Shown piece after piece: positions 6,061 through 41,143 of a DNA stretch of 44,432 bases (positions are counted from its first letter, which is position 1; each line of letters opens with the position of its first letter). A program made the position numbers and the translations under genes. Source of the DNA: Nemertoderma westbladi. Its lineage: Eukaryota > Animalia > Xenacoelomorpha. The notes below the pieces were generated by a model. It had not been told where the DNA came from and made no database searches. It worked only from the letters and a program-made list of their open reading frames with translations. Location: contig JAUCBJ010005079.1 in assembly GCA_032718475.1 (NCBI GenBank), positions 1 to 44,432 on the forward strand, given 5' to 3'.

Positions 6061-6114
6061 ATTGCGAGAATATATTGATGATATAGAAATTGTCTAAATA
6101 AAAGGGGCACTACA

Positions 6115-10381: not shown

Positions 10382-10680
10382 TATTCCTAGCTAGCCAGTG
10401 GCATCGCTCTTTGCCTGCCTGCCTGACTACGCCTATGACTACCTACCGAGCTATTCATTTATTCTCAACCTGTTTAGCTGATATTCCTACAGAGTCTGTT
10501 AATATATTTATATTTAAATTTATAGCTAAACGACAGATTTAATAATGATTGTCAATAATAAGGCTTATATCCAAAAGTGTTTATTTCTCAAAATATTAGG
10601 CTTATTATTTTTTGATAGGATTTCTGTGTATGCCTATTTGAATTATCTAAGTTTTTACACTGGGGCATTAACAAAGGGTA

Positions 10681-16122: not shown

Positions 16123-16549
16123 CTGGGAAATAAATGGAGGGGAATTAATAACGAATAGGAAACACAGAGAACACAAATTATTTCATTTATAGAACTCAAA
16201 ATAGCAACGACTGCTGCTAGTGAAGTAATCAGTGTGTAAATTAATTAGCGAAGTGGAGATCTTGGGTTGAAATTGGGTAGCTGTGGTGTTACATAACGAA
16301 CAGTAGTGGGCTAAATAAACATGATCGACCACCGCACTATGAGGCAATGCGGGGTTATATTGGTTGTTCGTCAGGGGTACACCATAGCCCCATTTCTGTT
16401 CATTGTCATGGTGACAACGAGATATCCGTGTGGAGCCTTGGTGTGGAGCCACACAGATGGAGCCTGTGCCTTTGCTGAACTGTAACTGTTGAAATGGACT
16501 GGACACCTGTATTAGCAAGTTACAGAGGGTACACACACAATGTCACTCC

Positions 16550-16793
16550 GTGAGAGGTAACGCGAGAGGGCGCGAGAGGTAACACGAGAGGGCGCGAGAT
16601 GTAACGCAAGAGGGTGCAAGAGGTAATGCGGGAGGGCGCGAGAGGTAACGCGAGAGGGTACGAAAGGGCGCGATAGGTAATGCGAGAGGGCACGACAGGT
16701 AACGCGAGAGGGCGCGAGAGGTAACATGAGAGGGCGCGAGAGGTAACGTGAGAGGGCGCTAGAGGTTACGCGAGAGGTAACGCGAGAGGGCGC
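16550..16793. repeat. 22-bp minisatellite (GCGAGAGGTAAC + GCGAGAGGGC), left part
   Basis: Direct inspection. The array continues at 40032 on the other side of the Gypsy element. Confidence 0.95.
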
Positions 16794-17004
16794 TGATATA
16801 CTCTTGGACCCTGGATCTGAGACCTGGGATGTACCGGTAGGTAGGAGATATATTGCTTACTGTGTTGTTCTATTCATGGCCTGCCTGCGTATTACTGTTC
16901 TATGGACTGACACTTATATACTTACCTGAAATGTACTGAATATTAATATTACACTGCTTATTGCATATTATCAGTATTATTTTATATGTTCCGGGGTTAT
17001 TACA
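16794..17004 (+). repeat. Gypsy 5' LTR
   Basis: TGATATACTC...TTATTACA. About 9 mismatches (counted by eye) versus 39821-40031. Confidence 0.95.
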
Positions 17005-17020: not shown

Positions 17021-17087
17021 TGGTGATATTTTCTCCAATTAATGATCTAGAAACAAAGTTCACATAGCAGCGAATGATAAAGAAACT

Positions 17088-18920
17088 TTGCACCTGAACC
17101 GAAATGAGGTCAACGAATTAGATAGAGATGAAGTTAAACAACATCTCAAAAATCTCCAAATAAAATTCGCTGACACAACTTCCACAATCGATTTGCGACG
17201 GATACTATGGCGCGCAATTGATTGCAGACAGCGGAATCCCACGATTCACGATGTGGATGACGCTGGCGTTAACGGGAAGGATAACTCGGAAACTAACTCT
17301 ATGCAGCAATTCATGCAGCAAATGTTTCTACAACAACAACAACAAATGCAAATCCAACAACAAATGCAGCAGCAGCAACTGGATGCTGTAATCCGGGCGT
17401 TACAGACGCCCGGAGGCCGATGCCCATGGATCAAGCCATCCAGATTCAGTTAAACTTACAATCCAACCTCTGGATGCTATCGACGACGAAATCGCCTATC
17501 CCAAATTCAAAAAATGGAGTACATCTTGGGGCAATTACGCTCAGATCACAAAATTATCTGCCCGTTCCCGGGAGGACCAGGTTGCAACCTTTTGGTCTTA
17601 CTGCAGCCCAGCCCAGACTTTCTCCGGCGTGTGGGACACACAATCGGCATACAACAGGATACTAACTTAACTCTAACCGAGGTTCTGGATAAAATACACG
17701 ATTATCTTCGAAATCAACAGAATATTGTTGTAGATTGGTTTAAACTCATCCGACGCACGCAGTCACACAAAGAATCATTCAACGATTTCTGTACTGCAAC
17801 TCCGCGAGTTGGCTGGTGATGCTGGCTTGACCTCGATGACCAAAGACGAGTGGCTGGCGACCCTGATTGTTGGTGGTATCACAGACGACGAGGTGAGACA
17901 GGAACTTTTATCTAAGAAACCCGCTCTGGATCTGGAGGAGACTGTTGTTCTCTGCCGCAATCGCGAACTCACTGAAAGGGACGAAAAATGTCTTAAAAAT
18001 AAATATAACTCCTCAATATCATCGAATAAGGATACGGGTTGGTGGGGTTGTAGCAAATCCTATTAACCCCAATTAACCCCAATACAGTATTGGGCCAATA
18101 CTGTACCACAATCATAAACATGATTCCTGGAGGTCAAACAAGCAGCACGATAAATCGACAACGAAATCCACAGATTGCTACTTCTGTGGATGACCATGGC
18201 TATTGTCAGCGGATTCAATTCCCTGCATTACCCACCGAAAATGGGATTAGTGACATTTTACCAATTATAGTTGGTGAGGTGACATTACCAATAATAATGT
18301 CACCTCACAACCAACTAAGGCAATACACGCCGTAAGCCACAGGGAGAGTTAAGAGGTCAAACCACATCAGAGGGAAAAACAGGCTAGTAAGGCTAGCACG
18401 TGGGGATAGTGGCAACAGGGAATGGCGAGGTGACAATTAATCAGGTTAAGCCAATGGTGGGTGGGAGAGCACATTGGGAGTGATTAGAGCGCATATATTG
18501 GACACTCAGGCCACTCAGTAGTGTAGAGCTGATTTAGTATATGTTAATAATAATATAACCGTTGCAGTTATTGATTACTGGTTCAGTTGGTTCCTATACA
18601 GTTGTGAGACCGGAACAGTTTTAACCGTCATCACTACCGTGCTATTATAATCAGGCTGTGCTATTATTACGTTCTGCGATTATAAACACTGACAGTAAAA
18701 CTCAGTTATTTGAACGGCCTTCGGCCTACTATACACATCCAGACTATAGCTTTAGCAACCTATGGATGTGGCGATGCATATAACACACACTGGTCGGGAT
18801 CTATACTGCGAACTCCAAGGTCCCGTCACAGCTATATGAAACAGGTAAACCTTGTCCCGCTACACACAACAAGTGCAAGAACTGCAGGAAGAATGGCCAT
18901 TTCAGAGCGATATGTTGGAA
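17088..18920 (+). pseudogene. Gypsy gag, frameshifted and interrupted
   Basis: Fragments LDKIHDYLRNQQN..RRTQSHKESFNDF and LIVGGITDDEVRQELL, and a CPATHNKCKNCRKNGHFRAIC zinc knuckle at ~18850-18916. Confidence 0.75.
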
Positions 18921-19017
18921 AAAATCACAGAAGGGTCAACAGCGGAATAACAGTCCTAACAAAAAAAAAACTAGAGGAATTTTTATCGCTGGGATAAAAG
19001 AAACTGAAGCGGTCACT

Positions 19018-19535
19018 ATGAAATCTGAAACTTCAGCCCACATTGATGATACGGAATATCAGATAATCGATATGGAAACTCCTAAAGTCGCTCGAGTTAC
19101 AGAGAATTCCCCTGACAAACCCATTATAACAGTCGACTTCCTTACAACTGCAGGTAATCTAATGGGGAAACTTGACGTTATCGCAGACACGGGTGCGCAG
19201 GTATCAGTTGCCAGAATAAAAATCCTAAAGAAACTCCGTATTCAGAGGAGAAACCTTAAACCCGTAAATGAAACTTTCGAAAGTGTTAACGGACTCAAAC
19301 TCTCCTGCATTGGATCGTATTCAATGAATATGAAACTCAGTAATACAATGCATACTGAACGAATCGTTATCTGCAGGGATATCGAGGACATTTATATTCT
19401 CTTGGGCGCATGTAAAGGACTGAATATAGTCTACGCTGATTTTCCCTAACAACTTCCAAATTCGGTAGTTTCAGCCACCACCAAAATTTCAAACCCGGCA
19501 GATAAATCAATTGCTCAGAACCTATTGACAGATGT
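19018..19535 (+). pseudogene. Gypsy aspartic protease; the frame continues to the BEL insertion point
   Basis: VIADTGAQVS motif. After one stop the frame reads ...NLLTDV and resumes as NNPFISDIKEQ beyond the BEL element. Confidence 0.85.
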
Positions 19536-21224
19536 TGTTCGCGGTATTTCAACTTTTCTTAACGCGAGTTGAATATTTTTCGGATTTATTTGAAATGAAT
19601 ATTCCAATATCACTACTGGGCGCGGGAACATGGGATTTGGGCATATTCAATGGACTGGGGGCGATTTATGGGCGAATATTGGGGCGACTTACGGGGTACG
19701 GGACTCATGTCAGATATTTAAGGGCCAGGGGTAGGAGGCAAAGTTAAGCAGTATTCAGGTTTGCCTGATTACTATTAGGCCTAGCCAACTTCCTGCTGCC
19801 TGTAGAGGTGGATTTGGTAACTCGCTAGGCCTAAGGGACAAGGAGTGCCCTTAGCGGTCCCTGGCCAACAGTAGTTATTACGAGCCTGAATAAGGACTCG
19901 GAAAGTCTGCTGCTTGTGTCAGGGATTTGCGACGGGAACCGACAGACAGATCTTTAGCGGTCCCTGGTCACCGGCAGTTATTACAAGCCTGAATAAGGAC
20001 TCGGAAAGCTTGCCGACATACACCAGGGACTTGCGACGGGTCAACCGACTAACGGAGGATGGGTTCGACGAGGACTGCCTTCCTGGAGTGGGTTCCACGA
20101 CCGGCGTTAGTACGAGCCTGAATAAGGACTCGGAAAACTACCAACCGTTGGGGCTCACGACGGGCTGACAGACCCCTTGCCAAGCCGTACCGCTTTCCTG
20201 ATGACCAATCCCCTCGGGGTTCGGGAAGGGTGGGACGGAGACGCAATGGGGTCGAAAGACAAAGGACCAGGCTCCACTGGCCTACCGACTGTTCGGAGCA
20301 GCTTCTCGGCTACCAAAGCGACTACGAGCCTGAATAAGGACTCGGAAAGCTTAGGTGGTTGGGTCCCCGTGATGAACCGACGGACCCCTAGCCAAGCTGT
20401 ACCGCTTTCCTGATGACCGATCCCTTCGGGGTTTGTGAAGGGTGGGACGGACACACAAACGGGTCCACCGACTTGACAGACCTAGCCAAGCCGTACCGCT
20501 TTCCTGATGACCAATCCCTTCGGGGTTCGGGAAGGGTGGGACAGACACGCAACCGTGTCTACCGACTTGACCGACCATTAGCCAAGCCGTACCGCTTTCC
20601 TGATGACCAATCCCTTCGGGGTTCGGGAAGGGTGGGACGGACACGCAACCGGGTCTACCGACTTGACCGACCCTTAGCCAAGCCGTACCGCCTTCCTGAT
20701 GACCGATCCCTTCGGGGTTCAGGTAGGGTGGGACGGACACGCAACCGGGTCTACCGACTTGACCGACCCTTAGCCAAGCCGTACCGCTTTCCTGATGACC
20801 GATCCCTTCGGGGTTCGGGAAGGGTGGGACAGACACGCAACAGGGTCGACCGACACCGACACTACGGTACCAAAACTAGGACCGAGGGAAAATTGGGGAA
20901 CATTAGTTAGGTTAAAATCTATAACAAACAGTGGGTAATTAAATAATGTACTGAAGGGATTTATATTGTTGTGTTATATTATTGAATATTTGGTGTATAT
21001 TGGTTTGGGGAAGCCCAACTTATTCTCAATCAAGATTCAACCGTAAGGAAGTTATATTAAAGATTATATCCAACCAATGAAACTTTTCTCAACCGCAATC
21101 TTACATTTAAGAAAGTGATCCTTCTTCACTTTCAATATCTGGTGACTGGCCGGAATTCCGTGGTCTAAAAGTTCCACCTCCAGCATCGGCGTTTTCCCCC
21201 ATGGTATCGGGAATAACGGCAACA
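19536..21224 (+). repeat. BEL 5' LTR (1689 bp)
   Basis: Direct repeat of 31623-33118. TATTTAA at 19715-19721. Holds four A modules and six B modules. Confidence 0.92.
19846..20855 (+). ncRNA. Putative array of structured RNA hairpin modules in the LTR
   Basis: Manual folding gives k-turn-consensus C(UUCG)G hairpins (96-bp period) and ANUA/GAA plus GAAUA-loop hairpins with compensating outer stems. Confidence 0.6.
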
Positions 21225-21431
21225 AAATTGAGAATAAGACGCGGCCAACTTCAACTGGTGGAAGTTGGGAATCCTACAGTACTCTTCAAACTCTCTCCGT
21301 GCTTACCCAGCACCCACTACGAGGAAACTCTGGTATTTGATTTAAGACAAAGCCGTGGTTCAATCAAATTACAAACTCGAACTAAAAAACTCGTAGTCGG
21401 CAGATCACATATAGAGAGTTGTTAACAGGGA

Positions 21432-21623
21432 ATGCAAGTATCGATCACACCAATTGATATAATCCAAGTTGAGCCAGGAATCTGGCACGTCGAAGTCGAA
21501 GTACAAGGAATGAATGTTGGACGATTCAGGATTACCATTCGGGTAGTCCAGGCTGAATACGAGACCTACGAAGAACTATTTTACGATATCGCATATCTAG
21601 CGATCAATGAGGCGCTAGAATGA
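21432..21623 (+). CDS. 63-aa upstream ORF whose stop overlaps the gag start (ATGA)
   Basis: ATG start, protein-like composition. The TGA at 21621-23 overlaps the gag ATG at 21620-22. Confidence 0.5.
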   Translation: MQVSITPIDIIQVEPGIWHVEVEVQGMNVGRFRITIRVVQAEYETYEELFYDIAYLAINEALE

Positions 21624-24600
21624 CGAGGAATAACGTCTCCGATACTGATGAAATGGACCCCCACACAGACTCGGAAACCGACGAGGCACCGAATGTGAAG
21701 AACATGGCTCGTCGACTGGGAGCTCTCAAAGGTGGAGTGACTCGAGCATACCACTGCATCGAGAAACAGCTAAAGGGCGCCGAGACTCCCCTCAGCGATA
21801 TACAGACTCAATTACAGAATATCCTAAGTATCTTACAACGATACGAAAGCATGATACAGCATATCAGGAACTCATTCCCGCAACCGATCTGGGAAACTAC
21901 CCCAGACTCGAAGAACACGTACCACATTTGGACGAGTTCCGCAAGCAACATCGGAGGACCCTCAGCCTCATAAGAGGCTACGAGGAACAGTATTATAAAC
22001 AAACTGAAAGGGCGGACGCAGAATCAGTACAGACCTCCGGTACCAGAACCGTGGTTCAGGGAAAAAGAACTGGGTCCTCGAGGCACCAGCACTCCAGCGC
22101 TAGGAGCGAGATATCTGGTTCAGCGCGCAGTTCCCAAGGGGGTCAACCACTCTGAGATCAGCTGCGAGAACAGAGGGCATTGGCTCTTAAAGCTCGAATG
22201 GAAGATGAGTATGTCCAACTGGAAATTGAACAGGATGCACTGGCGGAGGAAAGACATAAACAGGAGGCCGAAATATATGCCAAACAACAAACGCAAGAGG
22301 CCGAAATACGGTCCGAAAAATGTAAACAAGAGGCCAAACTATGTAAACGAGAGGCCGAACAACAGGCCGAAATACGTAAACAAGAGGCCGAAATGTGTAA
22401 ACGGAACACCAAGGCCCAAGCGATTCTTGTTCATAAAAAGAATGCGGACATTGCTAAACTCACAGACTACGAAGCTGCACTCATAGAATGGGACCTTCAA
22501 CTATACGAGGACTGGGAAAGGGGTATAGAACAGGATTATGTAACAATTCCAGTCCCGGAGTTAGAAAAGTCATTTACACCACCGGCTGCGGAACCCCCAA
22601 AACCTGAGTTCCCGCCTACTATACAGTCTACGTTATCGGCACAAGCACCGGTATTCCACCCCTCACCGGTTATGCTTAAGAATGAGGAACCTTATTTCCC
22701 ATCTAATCCCACGGCACCGAGCGTTCCCCAGTACGAGTCTGAAAAGGACTCGGAACGGGACGCCACCCCTCAATCCAACAATCCGTTCACATCCATACCG
22801 AAAATCCGTAACCGCGTCATCATTAAAACTCCACCTCTCGTCGATCCATCGTGCATGGGAGAAAATGTGAATAACTATAATCCTCCTAGTCATTCCAGTT
22901 CGGATGACGTTGGCATCATCCGAGCCTTGGAAAACCGCCTGGCTATGCCCAATATGGAGATCCGCACCTTTGAGGGAGACCCCGTCGATTACCTCAGATT
23001 CAAGAAACGGTTCTTCGCTCAGATCGGGTCAACGGATATAACCGACGCACAAAAACTGGTATATTTATCCCAATACCTGGGTGACAAACCACGTCGAATC
23101 ATTAAATGTTTCGAGGGAGGATCTCACGAAGCGTACTACGACGCATGGAAAACTCTAGACAAAAGATACGGAAACATCGGAACTATAATTAATAAGACGC
23201 TCAAGAAACTGATACAGGACGCTGGGTCCCTAGGGGACCCACAGAATATCCAAGAGTTCTCGGACTCTATGAAAGATGCCTACTACACTTTAAACCATTA
23301 AACAAGGAGGAACAAGTAAACAACATTTTAAACCTCCGACAGATTGCCCGAAAGTTCCCCGGATGGCTGCAAAGCAAATGGGCGTATAAATGCGTAGATC
23401 TCCGACGCAGACACCCAGATCGGGATCCCAGTTTCCTCGAAATGTCGGCATTCCTAGATGATATCTCCGAAGCCATGAATGACTCGATGTTCTCCAAACA
23501 AAGTCTCTCCAAGTTAGACAGAATAGAGAACAACTCTAGGAGCAGGACACCCACTCCGAAACCGAGATTCCGTCCCCCTCCGGTGAGTACGATGGCCATC
23601 AATCACCATGGCCGAGGATTCTGACGACGAGAACTACGAGGAACTGACATCAGGCGAGGAATGGGCGTGTTATCTAGTGAATTGGGCACCCGAAAGGGAA
23701 GGCACCACAACCTCCCTTCTATATTGCTTCTGCGGAGAGAAACACAAGGTGGAATTCTGCAGAAAGTTCCAGTTTGCTGAACTCGTCCCACGCTTCGAGG
23801 CGATAATGAAACACCGAGGATGCTTCCGGTGTTTCGGAACAGGTCACTATGTTCGGGATTGCGACCAAAGATCGTGCTGCGCGGTCTGTAATGACCTACG
23901 TCATCACACACTCCTCCACATCCCTGCGAACTTCGATTTTACCACCCTCCCGTTCCGGATCGAATCCAAACGGAGAGGAGAAACGAATCACGTCTCTAAG
24001 GGTACCCGGACGATTCAATGGAAGGAAACCAATCCATTTAAAACCGCCACCGATGTATCACATGTGACAAATATTTCGGCTACGATCAATCTTATAAACC
24101 GCCAATACATGGTTTTCGCCAAAGTGATCCCAGTAAGAATTCAAGGGGTTGGGAAATCCTTAACAACGCTCGTGTTCCTTGACAATGGGTCGGACGGAAC
24201 CATCATCGACTGGGATTTCCTCGAACAACTAGGCCTAGACTACGAACCTTGCAAACGGCCCATACAAACTATTACCGACCATAGAGAAGTGGAGTCCGGG
24301 GAGGTATAACTCAAGATGGAAGGGGTTATGAAGGGTTACGAGACGGTCAAACTGATGATCAAGAACGCTCTGGTACACAACGATCTCCGAGTGCGGTTCC
24401 GACAATCATCTGAATATGCACCCCTCATACAACTAGACTGGGAAGATGTAGATCTACGATGCCCGCCGTTGGACGTGAACCAAATTACCCTATTAATCGG
24501 ACTCGACACACCGGAATTACACATACCAACCGGAGACATCGCCCGATCCATAAAGCCGGATGACAGTTTTTATGCAGAACGCACCATCATGGGATGGACA

Positions 24601-27600
24601 TTATGCGGCATCAAAGAGCAGACTACTGACACCTATACATATCTCCCTAAATGCCAGATTAAAGAGAATTCAACATCTGTGGATTACTGTTCAGCCACTG
24701 ACCCGGACGAGGATTTATTCCTAGAAACTGAAAAAACCCAGCAGGAAATGACCAAGTACTTTAACTCAGAGACCCAAGAGTTTGCTGAAAAGGACGAAAA
24801 CCCGTCCGAGGAAGATCAATATTGTATCGACATCCTTGATCAGGCCACGTTCAAAGACGGACATTGGTGTTCGCCCATGCTGTGGAAAGACCCAGATAGA
24901 CCGATGGCGAATAATGCCAGCATGGCCCTTAGGAGGCTTAAGGGGATCCGGTTAAACGACCTACCCGAGATAAAGGAGAAATACAATAATGTAATTAGAG
25001 GATATCTAGAAGATGGATTGGCGGAAATGGTACCCCGGAATGAACTGCAAGGGGGTAGACGGACGTATTATCTCCCAACCCACTATATGATAGAAGCCCG
25101 GAAGGGTTGTAAAATCCGGGTAATGAATGATGCTGCGGCTATGTATCAGGGCGAATCCCTGAACAGCCAACTTTATACAGGGCCCAACATCTACAGTACA
25201 CTCATCAGCGTGTTGATCAGGTTCTGGGAAAACCGAATAGCCTTCACCTGCGACATCAAAGCAATGTTCCACCAGGTCCGAACGCTACCAAGAGACTCAG
25301 ACTGTCTACGTATATTATGGACAGATAAAACATTAACTCGAGAGGAGATAAGTCAACTCACCTTGAAGGATGTGGACATAATGCGCATGATTGTCAGGAT
25401 CTTCGGCGCTAAGGACTCGCCGGTGGCATGTAGTGACATGCTGAAGAAAACAGCGGCTATGTGCAAAAACGAGTTTCCTCCGACAGTCATAGAGACCATC
25501 CAACGATGCTTCTACGTAGACGACGGATGCGCCGGTGCCGATAATGTCAACGAGGCATATCAGCTGGCGATGGGAATGGTGGAATGTTTAAAGAGAGAAG
25601 GCTTCCCTCTCGTAAAGTTTAGATCCCACGATAAGGAACTTATGGAAAAGTTCCCGGAAGAAATCAGACTAGACGACAATAAAATGTATTCCGAGGGTGT
25701 GGATCACCATGTACTCGGTATCGAATGGGACATAGAATTGGATGAGTTCATCTTCAAATATAACCCCCTACCCAAGCCCATGACAAAAAGGGGATGTCTG
25801 TCTATAAAAAGTGCTATATTTGATCCACTAAACTTCATATCTCCAGTAACATTGGCCGGAATGAATTTGATCAAAGAATTGTGGATAGAAGGACTGGGTT
25901 GGGACGAAGAACTCCCCCTACACCTCAGTGCTAAATGGAGAAAGTGGATGGAACAACTCGAACATCTACATCTTATGCGGATCCCTCAACCGTTCTTCCT
26001 CGATAAACTACCCACCGATATATTCCAGCTCCATACCTTCTCGGACGCATCGAATACCGGAATCAGCGTAGTTACCTTCCTAAGAAGATTAAGTCAGGAT
26101 GGAAACAGCGATACGAGCTTCTTATTCTCTAAGGCTAAGACAGTATCCAGGGAATTCGTAGCAACGATACCGAGACTCGAGCTACAGGCTGCAGTTTGGG
26201 CAGTGAGGCAGAACCGCATGATCATGCGGAACTTACGAATCCCCATCGAATCGCAGCATTTCTGGGTCGATTCGGGTATCGTACTCTACTACCTCCACTC
26301 ACCATCACGGCAACACACCACGTTTGTAGCGAACCGAGCCACTGAGATAAAACAGTGCACCGGCCGAGAACAGTGGCACCATGTAAACGGGAAAGAAAAC
26401 CCAGTGGATTTATCGAGCAGAGGCGCCACCCCACAACAACTCGGTAAAAGTAAACTCTGGCTTACAGGCCCGGAATTCCTACAGCAGCCACAATTAACCT
26501 GGAGCACCCGATTCGATCACAAACTAGATAGTGAAAAATACTCCGAAGACGACAAGGAGATCCGTAAAGTCCATAGAAGCGCCACAGTGGAGATCTATAG
26601 TTGTCTGAACGAGCCTGCAAAGGACTCGGGCAAGCACTATAATATCGCGACTACCACGCAACCAGCGGCGTCTTTACAACTATTGATAGAGCGAACCTCC
26701 TCAATGAGACGTCTCATCCACCACATCTTAACCCTTCGCAACTTCCTGCGGTGGAAGGACAACAAACCGATAGTTTGACGAAGTATACAAGAACTCATTA
26801 TTGCGGAGAAGTGTACCGGTATTGTTAGATATGTCCAGAAAGAAAGTTTCCCCGATGAGTGGGAACAACTCAGTGCGGGCAAAACCTTGAAACCGGACAG
26901 TCCAGTCTACCAATTGAGACCCATGATGGGAGAAGACGGACTGATTCGACTGAATACCCAGATGGCAAATGCCCCGGTTGAATACGAAGTCAAATACCCA
27001 GCGCTTCTACCCGGAATGTCAACATTAGCCAAGCTATTAATCCAACAGTGTCACGAAGAAAACCATCACGCGGGACAGAACTGGATTATGGCTAATATAC
27101 GGCAAAGATATTGGATCACCCACATCCAGCCACTGATCCGGAAAGTGTTAAAGCGTTGTTTTCCCTGCAGAAGATATCTAGCGCCAACGCTCACACAAAG
27201 AATGGCCAACTTACCAGCCACACGACTGCAGTCCGATTCCCCGCCGTTCTACGTAACCGGAGTAGACTGTTTCGGACCATTTACAGTCATCGAGCGACGA
27301 TCCAACATCAAATGCTGGGGGGCTATCTTTACATGCCTTAGGTCTAGGGCAATCTACCTAGACCTCGTAGTGAACCTTACGCAACACGCATTTCTCAACG
27401 CCCTGCGTCAGTTCGTGGCAAACAATGGAACATGTCGTCGTATGTACTCCGATAATGGAACAAACTTCGTGGGAGGAGAAAGAGAACTTAGAGAGGCGAT
27501 CGAGGGATGGTTCACCGAAGAGACCGCATCCCAAGTCTGGAGGGAACACCATATACAATGGCACTTCCAAACACCCTTGGCAACCCATACGAGCGGGGTA

Positions 27601-28224
27601 TGGGAGAAGCTCATCGACTTGGTAAAACGATCCATGCGCGTCGCATTAGGGGACATCCGGGTAACCCACGACACCCTTCGCACAACATTCTGCGAGATCA
27701 CGGCTACCCTAAACAACTGGCCCATCATACCTATTCACGACAACCCCACAGATCTGGAGCCTCTTACACCTAACCATCTACTCGGAAGACCTAAAACCAA
27801 CATTCTTCCAGAGGCGATGTTCCCAGATCCCAACAATATTGCTAGACACACCAATTGGAAAAAGGCCCAAGCACTGGCAGCGCATTGGTGGAGAATTTGG
27901 GCCCAAGAGTACCTCATAACCCTCCGGACCAGGAGGAAGTGGAATAACACCTACAAGAATGTCGCAGTTGGCGACATGGTGCTAGTTAAGGAAGACCTTA
28001 AAGACCGCGTCCACTGGCCTGTGGCGCGAGTCGTGGAAATAGCCCCAAGTAAAGACGGACTTGCGAGGACTGTGATGATACGAACGGCAAAGGGCCACTA
28101 CCAACGCCCTATCCAGAGGCTCTGCCTTCTTGAAGGCAATGACAGCGGTGATTCTACGAGAGGTGATAAGATCCCTACTCAGGATCCTGCTGCAGACATT
28201 GGTGACAATGCTAAACCCGTTTAA
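21620..28224 (+). pseudogene. BEL/Pao gag-pol polyprotein (DUF1759-like gag, Cys/His knuckles, protease, RT, RNase H, integrase) with a few stops and frameshifts
   Basis: Motifs FEGDPVDYLRF, CFRCFGTGHYVRDC..CAVCNDLRHHTLLH, FLDNGSDGT, DIKAMFHQV, FYVDD, FSDAS, TIPRLEL, GVDCFGP, SDNGTNF and GVWEKL. In-frame stops at 22153, 24307 and 26776; frameshifts near 21900, 23298 and 23606. Confidence 0.95.
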
Positions 28225-28879
28225 ACCCTTCTCATCCTGTTGACAAACTCTTTTAAATGTGATTTACTGACAATGAATAATGGATCCCCCTTAAACCAAC
28301 TGTATCCACGCAATGGTATTTGTGTTTCCTCGTGTGTTATGTGGAATCCAGAGTCACCCTGCAGATGTTTCGACTGACGCAGGGTAGTTTATGTATTGTT
28401 CACCCTGATTTTGGTCATCAGGACCAACTATATTGGATTATTGGAAATGGTAAAGATTTGAAGTGGAATTCATTGTATCCATTGTGTTGTATTGTGTTGT
28501 CCGTTGCATGCGCAGTTCGGGGCGTAGGCAGTTTAACTAGTCCAGCTGTAGATCCCGGATTGCCGCGCAACACCCCCTCTATCACGTTATTCTGGCAGGT
28601 CCATGATGCATCCACATGACTTCGTCGATAGAGGTTTCATGTTTCTCAGTCGCGTTATTCTGGTGGGACCGTTGCATGGATTTTGGGGCGTAGGTGGTGT
28701 AACGAGTCCGGCTGTAGATCCCAGAATGTTGCGTAACCCCATCCCACAATGAAAATTTCCCAAAGAAGATGGTTGAATGTAGTTGGAAATGATGAAAAGA
28801 AACAGACGACCCTACTATAAACTGAATGATGACGCGTATGATGATGAAAATGTAATGATGCACACCCTGGTGCTGCGCT

Positions 28880-29130
28880 TATAACAAATGATGATAGCCG
28901 GGGGCTATAACCCCAATGATGAAATGGAAATGATGAAATGAAAATGATAAAATGTGGAAATAAATGAAATGTGTAATAAATGTGAAATAAATGTGGAAAT
29001 AAATGATGAAATGTGGAAAGAAATAATGAAATGTGAAATGAGTAATAAATGAGAAATGAAAAAAGACAAAAAAAATGTATAAAATGTAGAAAGTAAAAGA
29101 ATTGGAAAAAGAAGAGGACATAAAAAGTCA
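28880..29130 (+). repeat. C-poor low-complexity (AAATGA/AAATGTG) tract between pol and ORF3
   Basis: Direct inspection. Confidence 0.8.
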
Positions 29131-29331
29131 AAACTGGTTGGATATTAATGTATAGCTATAGTAACTGTAAATACTGAATGTAGTAGCAATAAGATGGTAG
29201 ATGCCTATATAGCAATAATAATTAATAAACTGAATTACAAATAAACTGAATTATTCTGCAGTCACTATAGAATCAGACTTTCTGGATTTATAATTAACTG
29301 ATGTAAATTTGCAACGGACATAATTGAAAAT

Positions 29332-31458
29332 ATGGACCCAAATCGCCAAATTATCGGCAAACTACGTAATACAATAGATTTACTGGAATATCCACAGCCT
29401 GGATCTCCCAACTTTGATACAGCATGGAATGCCCTGATAGTTGAGAATGTGCGAATCATTAAATTCTCCGGGCGAGAGGGACCGGATTCCCGTAATCTAC
29501 GAGAGCTCCAGTTGACCGATGTTAGTACGAGACTGAAAAGAACTCGGAACACAAAGGAAACCGGAGGAGAGGAGTTGTCATTCTGGGAAACGTTCCGGCA
29601 AAGCGTCTACAAATCTCGATGTTTGATATACAACAACGAGGGAAACGCGACGCCCACCTCGAAAGCGATTACGTTGGCGTGATGCCAAAGTTTTGTCGAC
29701 GACAAGAGTACGTACCTCACCCACTGGGGAAACCTAGCGGAGTGTACGGCGACGCTGCGAGAGGAACGTATATCAGTTATCCAGAATCGCGACGACTACC
29801 AGGAGAAGTATGGGACAAAGGAATACGGTCGATCATTAGTCGTCATCCTCGGAACCCTAGATGGTCTGGTGTTGATATGTCGAATATTTCCGACACCCAA
29901 ACAGGAGATGCGGACAGCCAGAGCGATCTGGCTATTACCACCGGAGATCCAACAGATCCTATTTGATTTCGACATCACTAAAATCGGGTCGGATATAAAG
30001 GCGGACGTCCGAAATGACTACGCTAACGCTCCTTTCGGAAGAAACCGTCGAGAAGATCTCAACGCCATTAGTCATTGCATTGACACCCAAATACTGCTAG
30101 CCTGGTTGCGATCCGCAGAATTCATGCGAGGATTCCGAGAGATGAGACGGACGAAATCCGGTATCGGCTACCTCGCAGTGCTAAACGGCGGTATAAACTT
30201 TAAACCCCAGAAATTCCAGGATTATAATAAGATATATGGTGGGCACCCGGAATTAGAAATAAAGAGTGAGCGAGAGAGTCGCTGGAAGGATGTAGAAAGA
30301 AAGTGGATGATCCACCACAAGTGGGAGAATCCAGATCGACGGAACTTTATCTACATCGTAATGGAATCATACACAGTTGCCAAGTTCATCTGTAAGACTC
30401 TTGATAGTCTCATTAAGGCAGTTCCTAGATCCTTTATCGACTATGAGTGGAACGAAGTTATCGACCACGCATTCAAAGCGGTAGAGAATATTCCACCAGG
30501 AGAAACGAAAAGGCTCACCGTCATCACATCCTGGGACGAGAATGGACCATTCGACATCCCTACGGTTGCTGATCTCCTCGGTGCGGAGGAACCACTGCTA
30601 TCTTCGGATGGGGAGGAATTATGGCTACAGGAAGGTGTTCTGCTGTCCACCCCAAAGCGACAACTCGATCCAGAAGTCGCTTACAAACCGGCCGCCAAAC
30701 GGGTCGCCTCGGCCAAACCTGCGACGGAAGCAGGTGTATCTACCCCACTTGGCTCCGCCAGTCCCGCTAGGGAGCTAGTAACTACCTTTGCGTTGAATGA
30801 CTTCGGCGTCATATGTCAGAGGTTGTCTCCATATCCGTTCCCGGGGGGAGAAGACTGGTCTTCGGAGATCCCGAGTACCAGCACCCAACAGACCCACTCA
30901 GCGATACAGGTTGCAAAGGGTCCCAGCGTTGCTCCGACTCCCGTAGATCTCCTCAGAATTCCTCCGTCGAATGCCCCGGCACCTCTTTGTCGACCAGCTG
31001 TGGCAACGACCCCTTCCGTTCCACAAGACCCTATGCGACTTACCCAATGGTACGCCGAACAGACTGAATGGATCCACCACCAGAAACGGGCGCCCGGGAT
31101 GTGACTGGCAGGATATAAAGAAAGTTATCGAAATGAGAACATCCTACGCCAAAAGAACATCCTACTACCATTCAATTACGTGGATCTATTATTAAGCGCC
31201 GGATTATTCGGTCCCTTCGAGATCCTTAGGCGTCACTCCTATAAGGAAGAATTCGGTGACGGAAAGTGGTTCCTAGAGGCACGCACTACCGAGTTGGAGA
31301 GACGGACGGATATGATCCCGCTACCATCTAAAGGAAGAGCCGCCAGGAGACAAGCTGAAGCGATGCTCACGATGGATGTTGATGCTCCCCTACCAACACT
31401 GGCGATCGACGAGAGTAGACGGGCGAAGAGGAGAAAGGCGTATCAGAGTAAGAAATAG
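29332..31458 (+). pseudogene. Extra ORF3 (~708 codons, two internal TGA) with a DEDDy/WRN-like 3'-5' exonuclease domain, Pro-rich linker and Arg-rich C-terminus
   Basis: ORFs 29332-29682, 29869-31104 and 31180-31458 share one frame, separated only by TGA at 29680 and 31102. Motifs LIYNNEG, VILGTLDGLVLICRI, LPPEIQQILFDFDITKIGSDIKADV, CIDTQIL and KWENP..IYIVMESY. Confidence 0.7.
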
Positions 31459-31622
31459 AGGACCAGAATATTCCAGGGACATTTATATCGAACATTTATT
31501 TTTATATATTTACATAAACTGACTCTAGGAAAAAGTAATCAAGACTATGCAAAATTAAAATTTGGGTTTTTTATATGGGAAATGACCTAAGCAAACTCGA
31601 TCTACCGATAGACCTCACGACC

Positions 31623-33118
31623 TCGCGGTATTTCAACTTTTCTTAATGCGAGTTGAATATTTTTCGGATTTATTTGAAATGAATATTCCAATATCACTAC
31701 TAGACGCGGGAACATGGGATTTGGGCATATTCAATGGACTGGGGTGATTTATGGGCGAATATTGGGGCGACTTACGGGGTACGGGACTCATGTCAGATAT
31801 TTAAGGGCCAGGGGTAGGAGGCAAAGTTAAGCAGTATTCAGGTTTGCCTGATTACTATTAGGCCTAGCCAACTTCCTGCTGCCTGTAGAGGTGGATTTGG
31901 TAACTCGCTAGGCCTAAGGGACAAGGACTGCCCTTAGCAGTCCCTGGCCAACAGTAGTTATTACGAGCCTGAATAAGGACTCGGAAAGTCTGCTGCTTGT
32001 GTCAGGGATTTGCGACGGGAACCGACAGACAGATCCATAGCGGTCCCTGGTCGCCGGCAGTTATTACGAGCCTGAATAAGGACTCGGAAAGCTTGCCGAC
32101 ATATGCCAGGAACTTCCGACAGGTCAACCGACTAACGGAGGAAGGGTTTGACAAAGACTGCCTTCCTGGAGTGGGTTCCACAACCGGCGTTAGTACGAGC
32201 CTGAATAAGGACTCGGAAAACTACCAACCGTTGGGGCTCACGACGGGCTGACAGACCCCTTGCCAAGCCGTACCGCTTTCCTGATGACCGATCCCCTCGG
32301 GGTTCGGGAAGGGTGGGACGGACACGCAACGGGGTCAAAAGACAAAGGACCGGACACCACTGGCCTACCGACTGTTCGGAGCAGCTTCTCGGCTACTGAA
32401 GTGACTACGAGCCTGAATAAGGACTCGGAAAGCTTAGGTGGTTGGGTCCCTGTGATGAACCGACAGACCCCTAGCCAAGCCGTACCGCTTTCCTGATGAC
32501 CGATCCCTTCGGGGTTCGGTAAGGGTGGGACGGACACGCAAACGGGTCCACCAACTTGACAGACCCCTAGCCAAGCCGTACCGCTTTCCTGATGACCGAT
32601 CCCTTCGAGGTTCGGGAAGGGTGGATGGACACGCAACCGGGTCTACTGACTTGACCGACCCTTAGCCAAGCCGTACCGCTTTCCTGATGACCGATCCCTT
32701 CGGGGTTCGGGAAGGGTGGGACAGACACGCAACAGGGTCGACCAACACCGACACTACGGTACCGAGACTAGGACCGAGGGAAAATTGGGGAACATTAGTT
32801 AGGTTAAAATCTATAACGAACAGTGGGTAGTTAAATAATGTACTATAGGGATTTATATTGTCGTATTATATTATTGCAAATATTTGGTGTATATTGGTTT
32901 GGGGAAGCCCAACTTATTCTCAATCAAGATTCAACCGTATGGAAGTTACATTAAAGATTATATCCAACCAATAAAACTTTTCTCAACCGCAATCTTGCAT
33001 TTAAGAAAGTATTCATTCTCCACTTCCAATATCCGGTGACTGGCCGGAATTCCGTGGTCTAAAAGTTCCGCCTCCAGCATCGGCGTTTTCCCCCATGGTG
33101 TCGGGAATAACGGCAACA
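31623..33118 (+). repeat. BEL 3' LTR (~1496 bp; four A and four B modules; lacks the initial TGT)
   Basis: Aligns to 19539-21224 and is about two 96-bp units shorter. Confidence 0.92.
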
Positions 33119-33332
33119 TATGTTAACAATCCATTTATTTCGGATATAAAAGAGCAATTACTCAAACAATACGCAGATGTATTCAGATCACAGGGTAAAC
33201 TGTCGACAAGGGTTAGTGACCCGATGCGTATAGAACTAAAAGACCACGTGCAACCATTCACTATCCATACAGCCTGCCCAATTCCATTCGCACGCTGTGA
33301 GAATGTTAAACAAGAAATTGACAATATTTTAA
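32972..33332 (+). repeat. Left copy of the ~361-bp target-site duplication of the RTE
   Basis: Repeated at 36848-37208 with about 3 mismatches. Confidence 0.95.
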
Positions 33333-36300: not shown

Positions 36301-36847
36301 AGAGAGTAGCAAAAAGGACATAGAAGTTAGGAAAGCAAAGGCTTGGGTAGCTCTATCAAAAATGGATACCATCTGGAAATCAGATCTCTCCAGGCACCTG
36401 AAGACTAAGTTCTTTCGAGCCACAGTGGAAAGTGTATTTTTATACGGGGGTGAGACCTGGACACTGACTAAATCACTTGAACAACGAATTGATGGTTGCT
36501 ACACAAGACTACTAAGGGCAGCCCTAAACATCAGCTGGAGACAACACATGACAAACGCCGAGCTTTATGGTACAATACCACCTGTATCAACCACCCTCCG
36601 TGAACGCAGATTAAGATTCAGTGGGCACTGCTGGCGAAGTAAAGACGAGGTCATACCAGATCTACTTCTCTGGCAACCAACTCATGGAAAGCGTAGTCGT
36701 GGACGACCGGCCATAACATATATAGATCAACTTGAAAGGGATACTGAACTTGGGAGAAACGAAATTGCGACAACTATGGAGAATCGGGAAGCCTGGAAGG
36801 ATCTCATTTACACTGTCCGAGTTCGCTCGACCTAGTAGTAGTAGTAG
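33333..36847 (+). mobile_element. Full-length RTE-clade LINE (family B)
   Basis: ~430-bp 5' UTR, a single APE+RT ORF, a (TAG)n tail starting at the stop codon, and a long TSD. Confidence 0.95.
33758..36835 (+). CDS. RTE ORF: AP-like endonuclease plus reverse transcriptase, uninterrupted (first ATG at 33794)
   Basis: Motifs ATMNARTL, ICIQEHR, YSPT, GDLNA, LDYIL, GSDHR, FVDFKKAFDS, GVLQGDTLAP and DFADDI. Confidence 0.97.
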   Translation: MTTSSLLPQLKDMSMRTLQEKYRLGRRPGQQGPRPSVVHQAGVDNYATGTEDREERRTNLLKCKKTLKIATMNARTLKAQSKQGDIVALAMEYNIDTICIQEHRICHEDTAMKFNDIGNGWTLVTSSAVRNSANALIGGVGILLSPFALKTLNNIESINSRVMIATFDRNPKTTVICCYSPTNASEPEQAVKFYEELTGLIKDIPKHNVKVIAGDLNAQIGPEDIKGYTYNTSSNRNGYLLLDLMEECELIPTNNTFEKSKGKLWTFQYPNGTKAQLDYILINKKWRNSMINCEAYSSFNLIGSDHRIVTAEIRLSLRASKPRTSKQINYDWEKLRTDNAVKDAYTVEVQNRFEALQSMDEDQSTDSIYQNIITAHKESAKRHIPLKPKRKQYVPWQNCEVTCKREDLKIAYKVKTEQPTTENINKVEKAKDDLKLAYNISQEKYIQDKTEAITTAHIQQQSRLTWQTVNEVSGRKSCAKGCLKADSPEERVGKWKNHFSNLLGQPPNIEVSPTRKIYDKTLPIETGDFTPAELQRSIKSMSNNKASELDEIPAEVWKTGVLNRPLLNVCNRMLKGEKPPPIWTKGQLKPLPKKGDLGIPTNYRGICLLVVAAKIYNKMILYRIRPHIEKLLRKSQNGFRPSRSTIAQILALRRLIEGIKSKNLPAVMTFVDFKKAFDSIHRGKMLEILRAYGIPEVIVAGIGLLYCDTEAQVLSPDGETEFFSILAGVLQGDTLAPLLFVIVLDYAMRMATKGEDLGFTLQERRSSRYPATTVTDTDFADDIALLSNTLADAQLLLNKVERAAKKVGLHINATKTEFMTFNVDGNLTTIDNNQLRKVDDFQYLGSWIESSKKDIEVRKAKAWVALSKMDTIWKSDLSRHLKTKFFRATVESVFLYGGETWTLTKSLEQRIDGCYTRLLRAALNISWRQHMTNAELYGTIPPVSTTLRERRLRFSGHCWRSKDEVIPDLLLWQPTHGKRSRGRPAITYIDQLERDTELGRNEIATTMENREAWKDLIYTVRVRST

Positions 36848-37208
36848 TAAAACTTTTCTCAACCGCAATCTTGCATTTAAGAAAGTATTCCTTCTCCACT
36901 TCCAATATCCGGTGACTGGCCGGAATTCCGTGGTCTAAAAGTTCCACCTCCAGCATCGGCGTTTTCCCCCATGGTGTCGGGAATAACGGCAACATATGTT
37001 AACAATCCATTTATTTCAGATATAAAAGAGCAATTACTCAAACAATACGCAGATGTATTCAGATCACAGGGTAAACTGTCGACAAGGGTTAGTGACCCGA
37101 TGCGTATAGAACTAAAAGACCACGTGCAACCATTCACTATCCATACAGCCTGCCCAATTCCATTCGCACGCTGTGAGAATGTTAAACAAGAAATTGACAA
37201 TATTTTAA
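36848..37208 (+). repeat. Right copy of the ~361-bp TSD, including a second copy of the BEL 3' terminus (ending 36994)
   Basis: Matches 32972-33332. Confidence 0.95.
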
Positions 37209-39820: not shown

Positions 39821-40031
39821 TGATATACTCTTGGACCCTGGATCTGAGACCTGGGATGTACCGGTAGGTAGGAGATATACTGCTTACTGTGTTGTTCTAT
39901 TCATGGCCTGCCTGTGTATTACTGTTCTATGGACTGACACTTATATACATACCTGAAACGCACTGATTATTAATATTACACTGCTTAATGCATATTATCA
40001 GTATTATTTTATACGTTCCGGGGTTAGTACA
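39821..40031 (+). repeat. Gypsy 3' LTR
   Basis: TGATATACTC...TTAGTACA followed by the GGCGC TSD. Confidence 0.95.
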
Positions 40032-41052
40032 GGCGCGAGAGGTAACGCGAGAGGTAACGCAAGAGGGCGCGAGAGGTAACGCGAGAAGGCACGAGAGGCA
40101 ACGCGAGAGGGTGCAAGAGGGCGCGAGAGGTAACGGGAGAGGGTGTGTGAGGGCACGAGAGGTAACGTGAGAGGGGGCGAGAGGGCGCGAGAGGTAACGC
40201 GAGAGGGCGCGAGAGGTAACGCGAGAGGGCGCGAGAGATAACATGAGAGGGTGCAAGAGGTACCACAAGAGGGTGCGAGAGGTAACGCGAGAGGGCGCGA
40301 GAGGTAACACGAGAGGGCGCGAGAGGTAACGCGAGAGGGCACGAGAGGTAACATGAGAGGGCATGAGAGGTAACGCGAGAGGGTGCGAGAGGTAACACGA
40401 GAGGGCGCGAGAGGTGATGCGAGAGGGCGCGAGAGGTAATGCGAGAGGGCGCGAGAGGTAACGGGAAGGGTGCGAGAGGTAACACGAGCGAGAGGTAACA
40501 CGAGAGGGCGCGAGAGGTAACGCGAGAGGACGCGAGAGGGCGTGAGAGGTAACGCGAGAGGGCGCGACAGGGCGCGAGAGGTACGTGAGAGGGCACGAGA
40601 GGTAATGCGAGAGGGCGCAAGAGGTAACATGAGAGGGCACGAGAGGTAACGCGAGAGGGTGCGAGAGGGCATGAGAGATAACGCGAGAGGTAATGCGAGA
40701 GGGCGCAAGAGGTAGCGAGAAGTAACGCAAGAGGACGCGAGAGGTAACGCTAGAGGGTGCGAGAGGTAACGCGAGAGGGCGCAAGAGGTAACACGAGAGG
40801 GCGCAACAGGTAATGCAAGAGGTAACGCGAGAGGGCACGAGAGGTAATGCAAGAGGGCGCGAGAGGTAACGCGAGAGGGCGCGAGAGGTAACGCGAGAGG
40901 GCACAAGAGGTAATGCGATAGGGCACGAGAGGTAATGCGAGAGGGCGCAAGAGGTAACGCGAGAGGGCGCAAGAGGTAATGCGAGCGGGCGCGAGAGGTA
41001 ATGCGAGAGGGCGCGAGAGGGCGCACAAATGACAGGTAACGCGAGAGGGCAC
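40032..41052. repeat. 22-bp minisatellite array, right part
   Basis: GCGAGAGGTAACGCGAGAGGGC units with many CpG-decay variants. Confidence 0.95.
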
Positions 41053-41143
41053 ACAAGTGAATGAAAATGAAACGCTAATTGTCATTGTTGTCACACATGT
41101 CAGCATGTCATATATTAATTTTGTATAAGTTTAGGTAGGAGTA

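Follow-up and report, generated by a model that had tools for sequence, protein, structure and literature searches.

Retrotransposons of the BEL/Pao group (Belpaoviridae, Semotivirus) are described in the ICTV profile as elements of 4.2 to 10 kb with long terminal repeats (LTRs) of 0.2 to 1.2 kb and an 18-nt primer site for tRNA-Arg or tRNA-Gly, and their replication as tRNA primed and poorly understood (PMC8742986). A survey of the group reports maxima of 22.8 kb for the element and 2.4 kb for the LTR, with medians of 7.4 kb and 383 bp (PMC3118150 supplement 9). Self-priming has been reported from chromoviruses of the gypsy group and from a single copia lineage of plants; in Tf1/Sushi, Tcn1, Tj1 and TAR/Houba, a 5' LTR segment is complementary to the bases after the LTR and there is no tRNA site (PMC6317226, PMC4600332). 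DEDDy exonuclease ORFs in the env position are known from the bdelloid elements Juno, Vesta and Athena/Terminon, with which we compared our locus by their published descriptions (PMC5408684, PMC6431247).

The window analysed here, 44,432 nt from Nemertoderma westbladi, holds an element that shares the gag-pol domains and their order, the LTRs and the 5-bp target duplication with BEL/Pao. At 13.6 kb, with LTRs of 1.5 to 1.7 kb, it exceeds the ICTV sizes but lies within the survey range. It differs from typical Belpaoviridae in having no tRNA primer site, no polypurine tract and a third ORF (ORF3) that is not env-like; because the tRNA primer site is missing, we regard it as a lineage variant and not as a typical member. 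The sequence-only reading had suggested a possibly undescribed system; an exonuclease ORF3 in the env position was already known from Juno and Vesta (PMC5408684).

Position, ends and family of the element

19536-33118, + strand: BEL/Pao element, 13.6 kb, ends TGTT...AACA
19531..19535, no strand: left target-site duplication, four of five bases equal to the right one
33119..33123, no strand: right target-site duplication, adjoining the 3' LTR
19536..21224, + strand: 5' LTR, 1689 bp; inferred U3 19536-21018 and R-U5 21019-21224
about 31623..33118, + strand: 3' LTR, about 1.5 kb, with AATAAA at 32970
21620..28224, + strand: gag-pol, with DUF1759, CCHC knuckle, aspartic protease, reverse transcriptase (RT), Peptidase_A17, integrase H2C2 and DUF5641
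28225..29331, + strand: non-coding spacer, 1.1 kb, with an A/T/G low-complexity tract at 28915-29061

The outer ends of the element have the TG...CA termini and the short target duplication of BEL/Pao (GATGT/TATGT, 5 bp), and the Pao-type gag-pol domains follow the order PR-RT-RH-IN. Among the matches listed, all 120 of 120 pol relatives carried Peptidase_A17 or DUF1759, and the closest pol proteins found were about 30 to 39% identical. The element thus belongs, with near certainty, to the BEL/Pao lineage. It is a decayed copy of a multi-copy retrotransposon: gag-pol is broken by three apparent frameshifts and three in-frame stops, and the LTRs differ by 4.2% (63 mismatches in 1491 aligned bases). 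Sister copies were seen as short contigs aligned to the window; three runs gave 5430 to 8264 contigs each on the internal region, covering all 30 bins, and a run from a third study contained a relative about 85% identical, with contigs spanning ORF3. No BEL/Pao element with these features was found in the literature searched; the family may already be catalogued, for instance in Repbase or Dfam.

Compared with the 5' LTR, 193 bases are missing from the 3' LTR, the length of two units of the B repeat described below; at the left edge of the 3' LTR, the initial four bases of the LTR, and hence the TG, are also absent. No polypurine tract directly precedes it, the nearest purine runs of at least 8 bases starting at 31425 and 31527; this absence may reflect damage in the window copy. 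The self-priming model set out below leaves both the missing TG and the missing polypurine tract unexplained.

Primer site and LTR arrays

21019..21030, + strand: candidate self-primer and candidate RNA 5' end, 12 nt complementary to the bases just after the 5' LTR
21227..21238, + strand: primer-binding-site position, 2 bases after the LTR, complementary to 21019-21030
about 19848-19940, 19951-20043, 20080-20172 and 20292-20384, + strand: four A modules, hairpin core 28 nt
20169..20855, + strand: six B modules; B1 at 20169-20261, B2-B6 a 96-bp tandem array from 20381

No tRNA primer site followed the 5' LTR, as judged by the occurrence of TGG; the first TGG lies at 21256, 31 bases after the LTR. 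Instead, the primer-site position was complementary to the LTR itself at 12 of 12 bases, at an offset of 2 bases. A complement of at least 12 bases occurred at 6 of 5837 control positions and in 4 of 20000 shuffles, a chance of about 0.001 for a match noticed post hoc. A published criterion for self-priming asks for complementarity of 10 or more LTR bases to a stretch lying 0 to 5 bases beyond the 5' LTR (PMC6317226), and the 12 bases at offset 2 fall within it. An AATAAA lies about 55 bases beyond the 12-mer, whose position also gave us the U3/R border; a transcript starting at 21024 instead would lose the predicted pairing. Reverse transcription is therefore probably self-primed in the manner of Tf1. 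The signature, which the sequence-only reading did not contain, is likely new for BEL/Pao, and our literature search found no self-priming case in this group.

The LTRs had been described as carrying hairpin modules of two types, and modules of both types, with predicted hairpins, were confirmed. The 5' LTR holds four A and six B modules in the order A1 A2 A3 B1 A4 B2-B6, and the 3' LTR four of each. An A module is predicted to form a hairpin core of 28 nt, nearly invariant in sequence, that sits on long stems; the stem arms vary by type. The B modules are predicted irregular hairpins. With 2 mismatches allowed, the A anchor was found at only 8 sites in the window, all in the arrays. On the + strand, all eight A copies folded better than their shuffles (z of -2.1 to -6.5), as did 6 of the 10 B copies at z of -2 or below, and folding was stronger on the sense strand for all ten B copies and for seven of the eight A copies. 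The A cores were 93 to 96% identical, whereas the 5' arms of unlike A types shared 31 to 46%; in the A3 and A4 types, every 3' arm nevertheless paired best with a 5' arm of its own type. Arm pairing beat shuffled arms (P < 0.05) in five A copies but not in the other three, and three pairs beneath the A core vary yet stay paired (G-C/G-U; U-G/U-A/C-G).

Covariation in the arrays gave no significant pair-level signal in either module. For A, with its nearly invariant core, 374 of 500 shuffles reached the observed score; for B, only 1 of 27 pairs changed on both sides. Counts of G-U pairs in A modules did not differ between strands (33 versus 30). Rfam returned no match at E ≤ 10 except one chance row, and none at the gathering score, and the module A pattern had 0 matches in viral contigs. 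By eye and against consensus sequences, the letters A-N-U-A/G-A-A (loop-E, GNRNA) occurred in all eight A copies and K-turn letters in 7 of 10 B copies, for which energy models favour other pairings. A hammerhead reading of module B, of the kind borne by retrozymes and Penelope elements, was rejected: the CUGAUGA-stem-GAA arrangement is present, but no third stem was seen by eye and Rfam gave no match. The shuffle-tested folding and the own-type arm pairing support the A modules as RNA structures, and the arrays as a whole are fairly likely to act as RNA.

Both readings of the LTR have a competitor. Reverse transcription could be tRNA primed, with the 12-base complement a chance match or an ordinary leader stem; the ICTV family profile gives an 18-nt tRNA primer site (PMC8742986), a CA|TGG lies 24 bases inside the LTR end, TGGs occur at 21256-21266, and a second complement (11 of 13 bases, 21009-21021 with 21262-21274) points to other long-range leader pairings. 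However, the CA|TGG belongs to both LTRs, inside the ends that the target duplication fixes, and the 12-mer sits exactly where a primer site is expected, at a chance level already small, so that we consider tRNA priming unlikely. A comparably low likelihood attaches to the arrays being U3 repeats at the DNA level: enhancers or sites for bound proteins that slippage and recombination have multiplied, with incidental hairpins that have no connection with ORF3. Arrays of factor-binding sites, too, look like a constant 28-base core whose flanks vary, the B copy number is unequal between the two LTRs of one element (6 versus 4), and the covariation and Rfam results point the same way; BEL/Pao LTRs reach 2.4 kb (PMC3118150 supplement 9), and plant elements with long LTRs and tandem arrays are on record (PMC6317226). 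Against DNA-level repeats stand the A arms of unrelated sequence that still pair with their own partners, the preference for the sense strand in folding, and the three pairs under the A core that change while remaining paired.

Complex retroviruses carry the pairs Tat/TAR and Rev/RRE, with TAR at the 5' end of the RNA. Like the window element, they combine an accessory protein bearing a basic patch with structured RNA, and the sequence-only reading had drawn the Tat/TAR analogy. A self-primer at 21019 would place the arrays in U3 and therefore at the 3' end of the RNA; they would then not be TAR-like, which speaks against this analogy.

Fold, active site and selection of ORF3

29332..31458, + strand: ORF3, 708 codons, in-frame TGA at residues 117 and 591

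An ORF of about 708 codons in the env position was confirmed, interrupted by two internal stops; the two alternative frames contain 28 and 36. It is predicted to encode a DEDDy-fold domain at about residues 130 to 360, a Pro/Ser/Thr-rich linker and a basic C terminus. No signal peptide, fusion peptide or membrane anchor was found in ORF3, and its sole hydrophobic stretch (from residue 168) aligns with exonuclease core strands. The Arg-rich tail reported earlier is better called a basic C-terminal stretch, with 8 R/K among the final 20 residues, and is as compatible with a nuclear localisation signal as with an RNA-binding motif.

The exonuclease fold emerged from profile comparison. ORF3 has two distant homologs (P0123, from a 9.4-kb contig, and P0125), both with intact D-x-E, D and Y...D/E, and a profile of the three matched 60 bacterial PF01612 domains at 93% in HHalign (E of 3e-7), while 60 column-shuffled controls reached at most 1.1%; the first profile match had been only 11.6%. 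In the Atlas, PF01612 appeared in 24 of 30 matches (score 0.92); the top three matches were unnamed, and the PF01612 row had 158 shared features, below the usual 170. Neither a hidden Markov model (HMM) of 30 bacterial domains nor searches of Pfam, NCBIfam, PHROGs and PDB sequences placed ORF3 or its homologs among exonucleases. A word search with ORF3 gave 0 of 3198 candidates, a profile search returned only the query's own member among 7999 scored, and neither viral nor genome contigs matched ORF3, nor plasmids and phages its homologs. AlphaFold models of ORF3 had pLDDT values of 38 and 37. We conclude from the profile match that ORF3 very probably has the DEDDy exonuclease fold. The homolog P0123 carries zinc knuckles, which are a likeness to the bdelloid elements and the only part of it with a PDB match. 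A C-terminal motif common to ORF3 and P0123 (E of 0.34) is a lead only, and a third search match, P0124, was dropped as a fibronectin-III chance match.

The DEDDy motifs reported for ORF3 are present in part: the ExoII D is kept, and ExoIII reads Y-x-x-x-E, as in P0123, but the D-x-E of ExoI is missing. MAFFT and HHalign set Q151 and R153 opposite the D and E, no register gives D-x-E, and codons 150 to 153 showed only synonymous differences among the listed rows of a diverged copy. The active site is thus probably dead, making ORF3 more likely a pseudo-nuclease than an enzyme of RNA processing.

Contigs from three studies cover ORF3, placing it in other family copies, and the proposed dN/dS check indicated purifying selection (omega about 0.3). 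In this test, made on one 333-base stretch of one pair of copies, ORF3 and a diverged contig had 48 differences; 24 of the 38 listed were synonymous against 33% expected (P of 1e-4), compared with 12 and 3 in the wrong-frame controls. Omega was about 0.28, and at most 0.49 if all 10 unlisted differences alter the protein. On this stretch, ORF3 is almost certainly a selected gene of the family. Among ten other BEL/Pao loci, no relative of ORF3 was found (best E of 0.07), and a relative at 33% has about 630 bases from pol to the next gag, leaving no space for it; long "downstream" ORFs at the ten loci were discarded as gag of collapsed assemblies. Juno and Vesta are gypsy-like and not BEL/Pao elements. 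The bdelloid ORF3s retain their catalytic residues, whereas ExoI is lost here, and within their genome they show no significant departure from neutrality, in contrast to the selection seen in this BEL/Pao host (PMC5408684).

Two other roles for ORF3 seem to us improbable, to much the same degree. It could be a working 3'-5' exonuclease whose site has been rearranged and which shortens the element's RNA, the ends of the cDNA or small RNAs, a trimming role having been proposed for the bdelloid ORF3s, which keep catalytic residues with DEDD changed to DEED (PMC5408684). ORF3 retains the ExoII D and the ExoIII Y...E, three acidic residues (two D and one E, at positions 154, 155 and 158) come after the ExoI strand, BLAST puts D155 opposite the homolog's ExoI D, and both homologs keep D-x-E. 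However, the BLAST register requires a 5-residue deletion within a core strand, and the two other alignments agree on Q151 and R153 at the catalytic places. Alternatively, a dead ORF3 could act against the host, independently of the arrays, as a decoy for small-RNA trimming or piRNA factors (anti-silencing). The inactive DEDD derivatives EXD1 and Maelstrom act in piRNA biogenesis (PMC5408684), the retrotransposon family is multi-copy, and ORF3 has a long linker and a basic tail of the sort that would favour contacts with other proteins and entry into the nucleus; yet none of the host factors found is closely related to ORF3, so that mimicry would be by fold only.

Upstream ORF and a possible RNA-handling system

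21432..21623, + strand: upstream ORF (uORF), 63 codons, its TGA overlapping the first gag ATG as ATGA

The 63-codon ORF overlapping the gag start was found as reported. An ORF in this position precedes 2 of the 219 + strand ATGA sites. No TURBS-like motif precedes the overlap, the uORF contains no transmembrane or hydrophobic segment (maximum hydropathy 0.63), and it had no relatives in Pfam, NCBIfam or PHROGs, its Atlas matches being under 0.9. The MDG1 group likewise has small ORFs before gag, sORF1 and sORF2, of which sORF2 is a transmembrane fusogen (bioRxiv 10.1101/2025.03.14.642691); the uORF differs from sORF2 and the FAST fusogens in lacking a hydrophobic segment and in overlapping the gag start. 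From its sequence, we rate a functional uORF as possible, at somewhat less than an even chance. A second upstream ORF (21201-21425, 74 codons) was dropped, with at least 5 indel rows of other copies falling inside it.

The preferred reading combines a decayed BEL/Pao copy, a selected but dead RNA-binding ORF3 of DEDDy fold, stem-loop arrays at the RNA 3' end and self-priming; as a whole, we hold it to be about evenly balanced. The transcript would begin near 21019 and anneal through its first 12 bases to the position immediately beyond the LTR; cleavage would release these bases to prime minus-strand synthesis, as happens in Tf1. Each RNA would carry a single set of A and B modules, situated in its 3' untranslated part immediately ahead of the poly(A) signal, and they would serve as reiterated docking sites for proteins in RNA export, localisation or protection. 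ORF3 would be expressed from a spliced or internal transcript, and the spacer at 28225-29331 is expected to carry its splice acceptor or promoter. The protein might serve as an accessory RNA-binding factor resembling EXD1, Maelstrom or the exonuclease-homology domain of Egalitarian, which is inactive. By functional analogy, these proteins also use an exonuclease fold to bind RNA; they are host-encoded and, unlike ORF3, come with partner domains (Egl domains, XAD). Among the bulged stem-loops that Egalitarian binds is the signal of the I-factor retrotransposon (PMC13186709).

That ORF3 binds the LTR arrays is a tentative and rather doubtful proposal. Slightly less probable still is the fuller scheme, in which one BEL/Pao lineage would have evolved its own RNA handling: a captured exonuclease turned RNA-binding adaptor for U3-derived tandem stem-loops (to export, localise or shield the genomic RNA), together with independent tRNA-free self-priming and a small protein coupled to gag in translation. 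A self-priming BEL/Pao member, if true, would add a third superfamily to those in which the Tf1 mechanism has arisen. What the DEDDy ORFs of retroelements do has been an open question since 2017, and an ORF3 under selection without its catalytic acids would indicate that binding, not cutting, was kept. The two short RNA modules are candidate ligands for a direct test of ORF3, and if ORF3 does bind them, a retrotransposon would have made a Rev-like or Egalitarian-like system from a nuclease.

The BEL/Pao element and the transposons around it

The window consists of nested transposons, and no host genes were recognised in it. Self-comparison revealed two long direct repeats, the LTRs of the BEL/Pao copy, whose main parts are as follows.

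19536-21224: 5' LTR
21432-21623: uORF, 63 codons, ahead of gag
29332-31458: ORF3, the third ORF, in the env position
about 31623-33118: 3' LTR

The element runs from TGTT to AACA, with GATGT on its left and TATGT on its right, which match at all but one base as a 5-base target duplication. Aligned over 1491 bases, the LTRs show 63 mismatches, and 193 bases are missing from the 3' LTR relative to the 5' LTR; BEL/Pao LTRs as long as 2.4 kb are recorded in the available part of PMC3118150. Its internal domains (DUF1759, a CCHC knuckle, aspartic protease, Peptidase_A17, an integrase zinc finger and DUF5641) make up the BEL/Pao set. The closest pol proteins found, from fish, molluscs, cnidarians and others, were only ~30 to 39% identical, and a close relative is therefore absent from the record in that search. 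The copy is decayed, with three apparent frameshifts and three in-frame stops in gag-pol. No polypurine tract precedes the 3' LTR, and the left edge of this LTR (31590-31625) lacks the first four LTR bases, hence the TG, reflecting either damage or an unusual plus-strand primer. At this position a distant relative (L002) has, as judged by eye, a purine tract and then TG.

Other transposons occupy the surrounding sequence.

17046-19449, 33119-33332 and 37000-39013: pieces of a decayed gypsy-like element enclosing the BEL/Pao element, gag-protease upstream of it and RT-RNase H-integrase downstream
16485-17004 and 39821-42420: purine-rich 22-base tandem arrays flanking the gypsy-like element, with a common 211-base unique segment
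33698-36835: endonuclease-RT ORF of a LINE with a TAG-repeat tail
32972-33332 and 36848-37208: 361-base direct duplications around the LINE, 99% identical
9917-10383: 467-base fragment, 98.7% identical to the LINE 3' part (36377-36843)
956-2674 (+) and 4157-6046 (-): two further LINE-type RT frames
8104-9312/12271-13395 and 7885-8113/13702-13938: long diverged inverted repeats, 66 to 78%
11740-12206: 150-base tandem repeat between them

The purine-rich arrays may be part of the gypsy-like element's terminal repeats. The 361-base duplication, which takes in the R-U5 end of the 3' LTR, is an unusually long target duplication, and the 467-base fragment is a recent truncated copy of the LINE. The inverted repeats may represent an old foldback element or a DNA transposon.

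ORF3 and the copies of the family

The long third frame described in the sequence-only reading spans 708 codons, with two stops in this copy, and was not recognised in a Pfam scan. An exhaustive search gave three hits, of which P0123 and P0125 are real homologs on short contigs; the third was dismissed as chance. In both homologs, which Pfam missed, the catalytic motifs are intact (D-x-E, ExoII D and Y-x-x-x-D/E). P0123 also has retroviral-type zinc knuckles, and both are possibly accessory ORFs of other retroelements. The basic C-terminus common to ORF3 and P0123 could serve in localisation. A profile built from all three proteins gave a weak match (11.6%) to 30 bacterial PF01612 domains and a match of 93% to 60 such domains (E 3e-7), with a maximum of 1.1% among 60 shuffled profiles; PF01612 was also assigned to 24 of the 30 hits of an Atlas search, at 0.92. 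ORF3 is thus predicted to have a DEDDy fold. The exonuclease motifs proposed earlier held in part: the profile alignment keeps the ExoII D and the ExoIII Y...E, and Q151 and R153 stand at the ExoI D and E. Among the rows listed, all differences of a diverged copy in codons 150 to 153 are synonymous, so the ExoI loss looks common to the copies and not a product of decay. We infer that the active site is dead; a rearranged site using D154, D155 or E158 is less likely.

ORF3 is under selection. In the break-free region 29700-30032, compared with one diverged contig, 38 of 48 differences were listed; 22 of these fell at third codon positions and 24 were synonymous, against 33% expected, and wrong-frame controls gave 12 and 3 synonymous. 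The resulting omega, for one stretch and one pair of copies, is about 0.28, or at most 0.49 if every unlisted difference alters the protein. In a second contig over ORF3, an insertion of 3 bases keeps the frame.

Three DNA runs, drawn from two studies, contained 25 to 29% of the element's words, with 8264, 5430 and 6631 contigs on the internal region (identity classes from 99% to <90%) and all 30 bins covered, uORF and ORF3 included; the window itself may derive from one of these runs. A run of a third study contained a relative of ~85% identity, whose contigs show 163 differences across about 980 bases of the uORF and gag start; for ORF3 the figures are 81 in 683 bases and 164 in 1093. Among the indels listed (12 of 76), 10 lie in the noncoding leader or spacer, 2 in gag-pol and none in the uORF or ORF3. 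Absence of ORF3 from sister copies would have spoken against the earlier proposal; contigs from three studies cover it, and it is therefore a family component, not a private insertion. No contig runs across the full element, so linkage on a single copy is visible in the window alone. The spacer before ORF3 contains a diverged two-copy repeat (28380-28750) where contig depth climbs and other copies have joints.

Gag start, priming and the LTR arrays

The short ORF noted at the gag start is present, its stop overlapping the first gag ATG as ATGA; such an upstream ORF accompanies 2 of the 219 ATGA sites in the window. The uORF has neither relatives nor a membrane segment, and no TURBS-like motif was seen there. 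The following ATG (21653), in a better context, may be the actual gag start.

According to the ICTV profile (PMC8742986), the 5' LTR is followed by a tRNA primer site of 18 bases. No tRNA-type site directly follows the LTR here, the first TGG being 31 bases off. The reverse complement of an LTR segment, 21019-21030, occurs without mismatch at 21227-21238; for this match, noticed post hoc in one copy, chance 12-base complements arose at 6 of 5837 control positions and in 4 of 20000 shuffles. The criterion in the available part of PMC6317226 predicts self-priming for the element, a mechanism described for Tf1 and Tj1 (PMC4600332, in extract). In predicted folds, RNA starting at 21018 or 21021 pairs both segments and RNA from 21024 does not. 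An AATAAA in the 3' LTR lies ~55 bases downstream of the self-primer segment and thus gives an R region of sensible size. We read the complement as a putative self-priming signature. If this is right, the two hairpin module types, A and B, would lie in U3 and be present solely at the 3' end of the RNA.

The modules number 4 A and 6 B in the 5' LTR, in line with the ten or so reported, and 4 A and 4 B in the 3' LTR; they have no Rfam match, and B copy number is still changing. The 28-base A core is 93 to 96% identical across types, and identity falls to 31 to 46% between 5' arms of unlike types. For A3 and A4, the best partner of each 3' arm is the 5' arm of its own type, whereas the arms of A1 and A2 cross-pair. 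Five of the 8 A copies reached p < 0.05 when compared with shuffled arms. The sense strand folds more strongly in 7 of the 8 A copies and in all 10 B copies. Covariation was not significant at the pair level for A or B, partly because the core is nearly constant and the 18 copies lack independence. Judged by eye against consensus sequences, the A core may contain a GNRNA pentaloop and a loop of the form A-N-U-A/G-A-A resembling loop E, and the letters of the B modules may fit a K-turn. The arrays probably function at the RNA level.

Precedents and the overall reading

Every single part of the element has precedent elsewhere. Small ORFs precede gag in the MDG1 group (bioRxiv 10.1101/2025.03.14.642691, in part). 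The bdelloid LTR elements Juno and Vesta have DEDDy ORF3s of unknown function that do not clearly depart from neutrality, according to the available text of PMC5408684, which also gives EXD1 and Maelstrom as RNA-binding DEDD proteins that are inactive; an extract of PMC6431247 repeats this account of DEDDy ORFs for Terminons. Catalytic residues are intact in those bdelloid proteins, whereas here ExoI is lost and selection is seen. The Egalitarian exonuclease-homology domain grips bulged stem-loops, one of them from the I factor (PMC13186709, in extract). The accessible parts of PMC3601003, PMC8220671 and PMC6238403 hold nothing on these features. Within the literature searched, with Repbase and Dfam beyond its scope, we found no DEDDy ORF3, arrays or uORF in BEL/Pao, no self-priming member of that group and no loss of ExoI in a gene under selection.

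The sequence-only reading was borne out as an observation and supported in part as an interpretation. Binding of the arrays by the ORF3 protein, suggested by their co-occurrence, is an attractive idea that we consider rather unlikely. The reading we favour, at even odds as a whole, is a BEL/Pao family that primes its own reverse transcription and carries RNA arrays at the 3' end and a pseudo-nuclease under selection.
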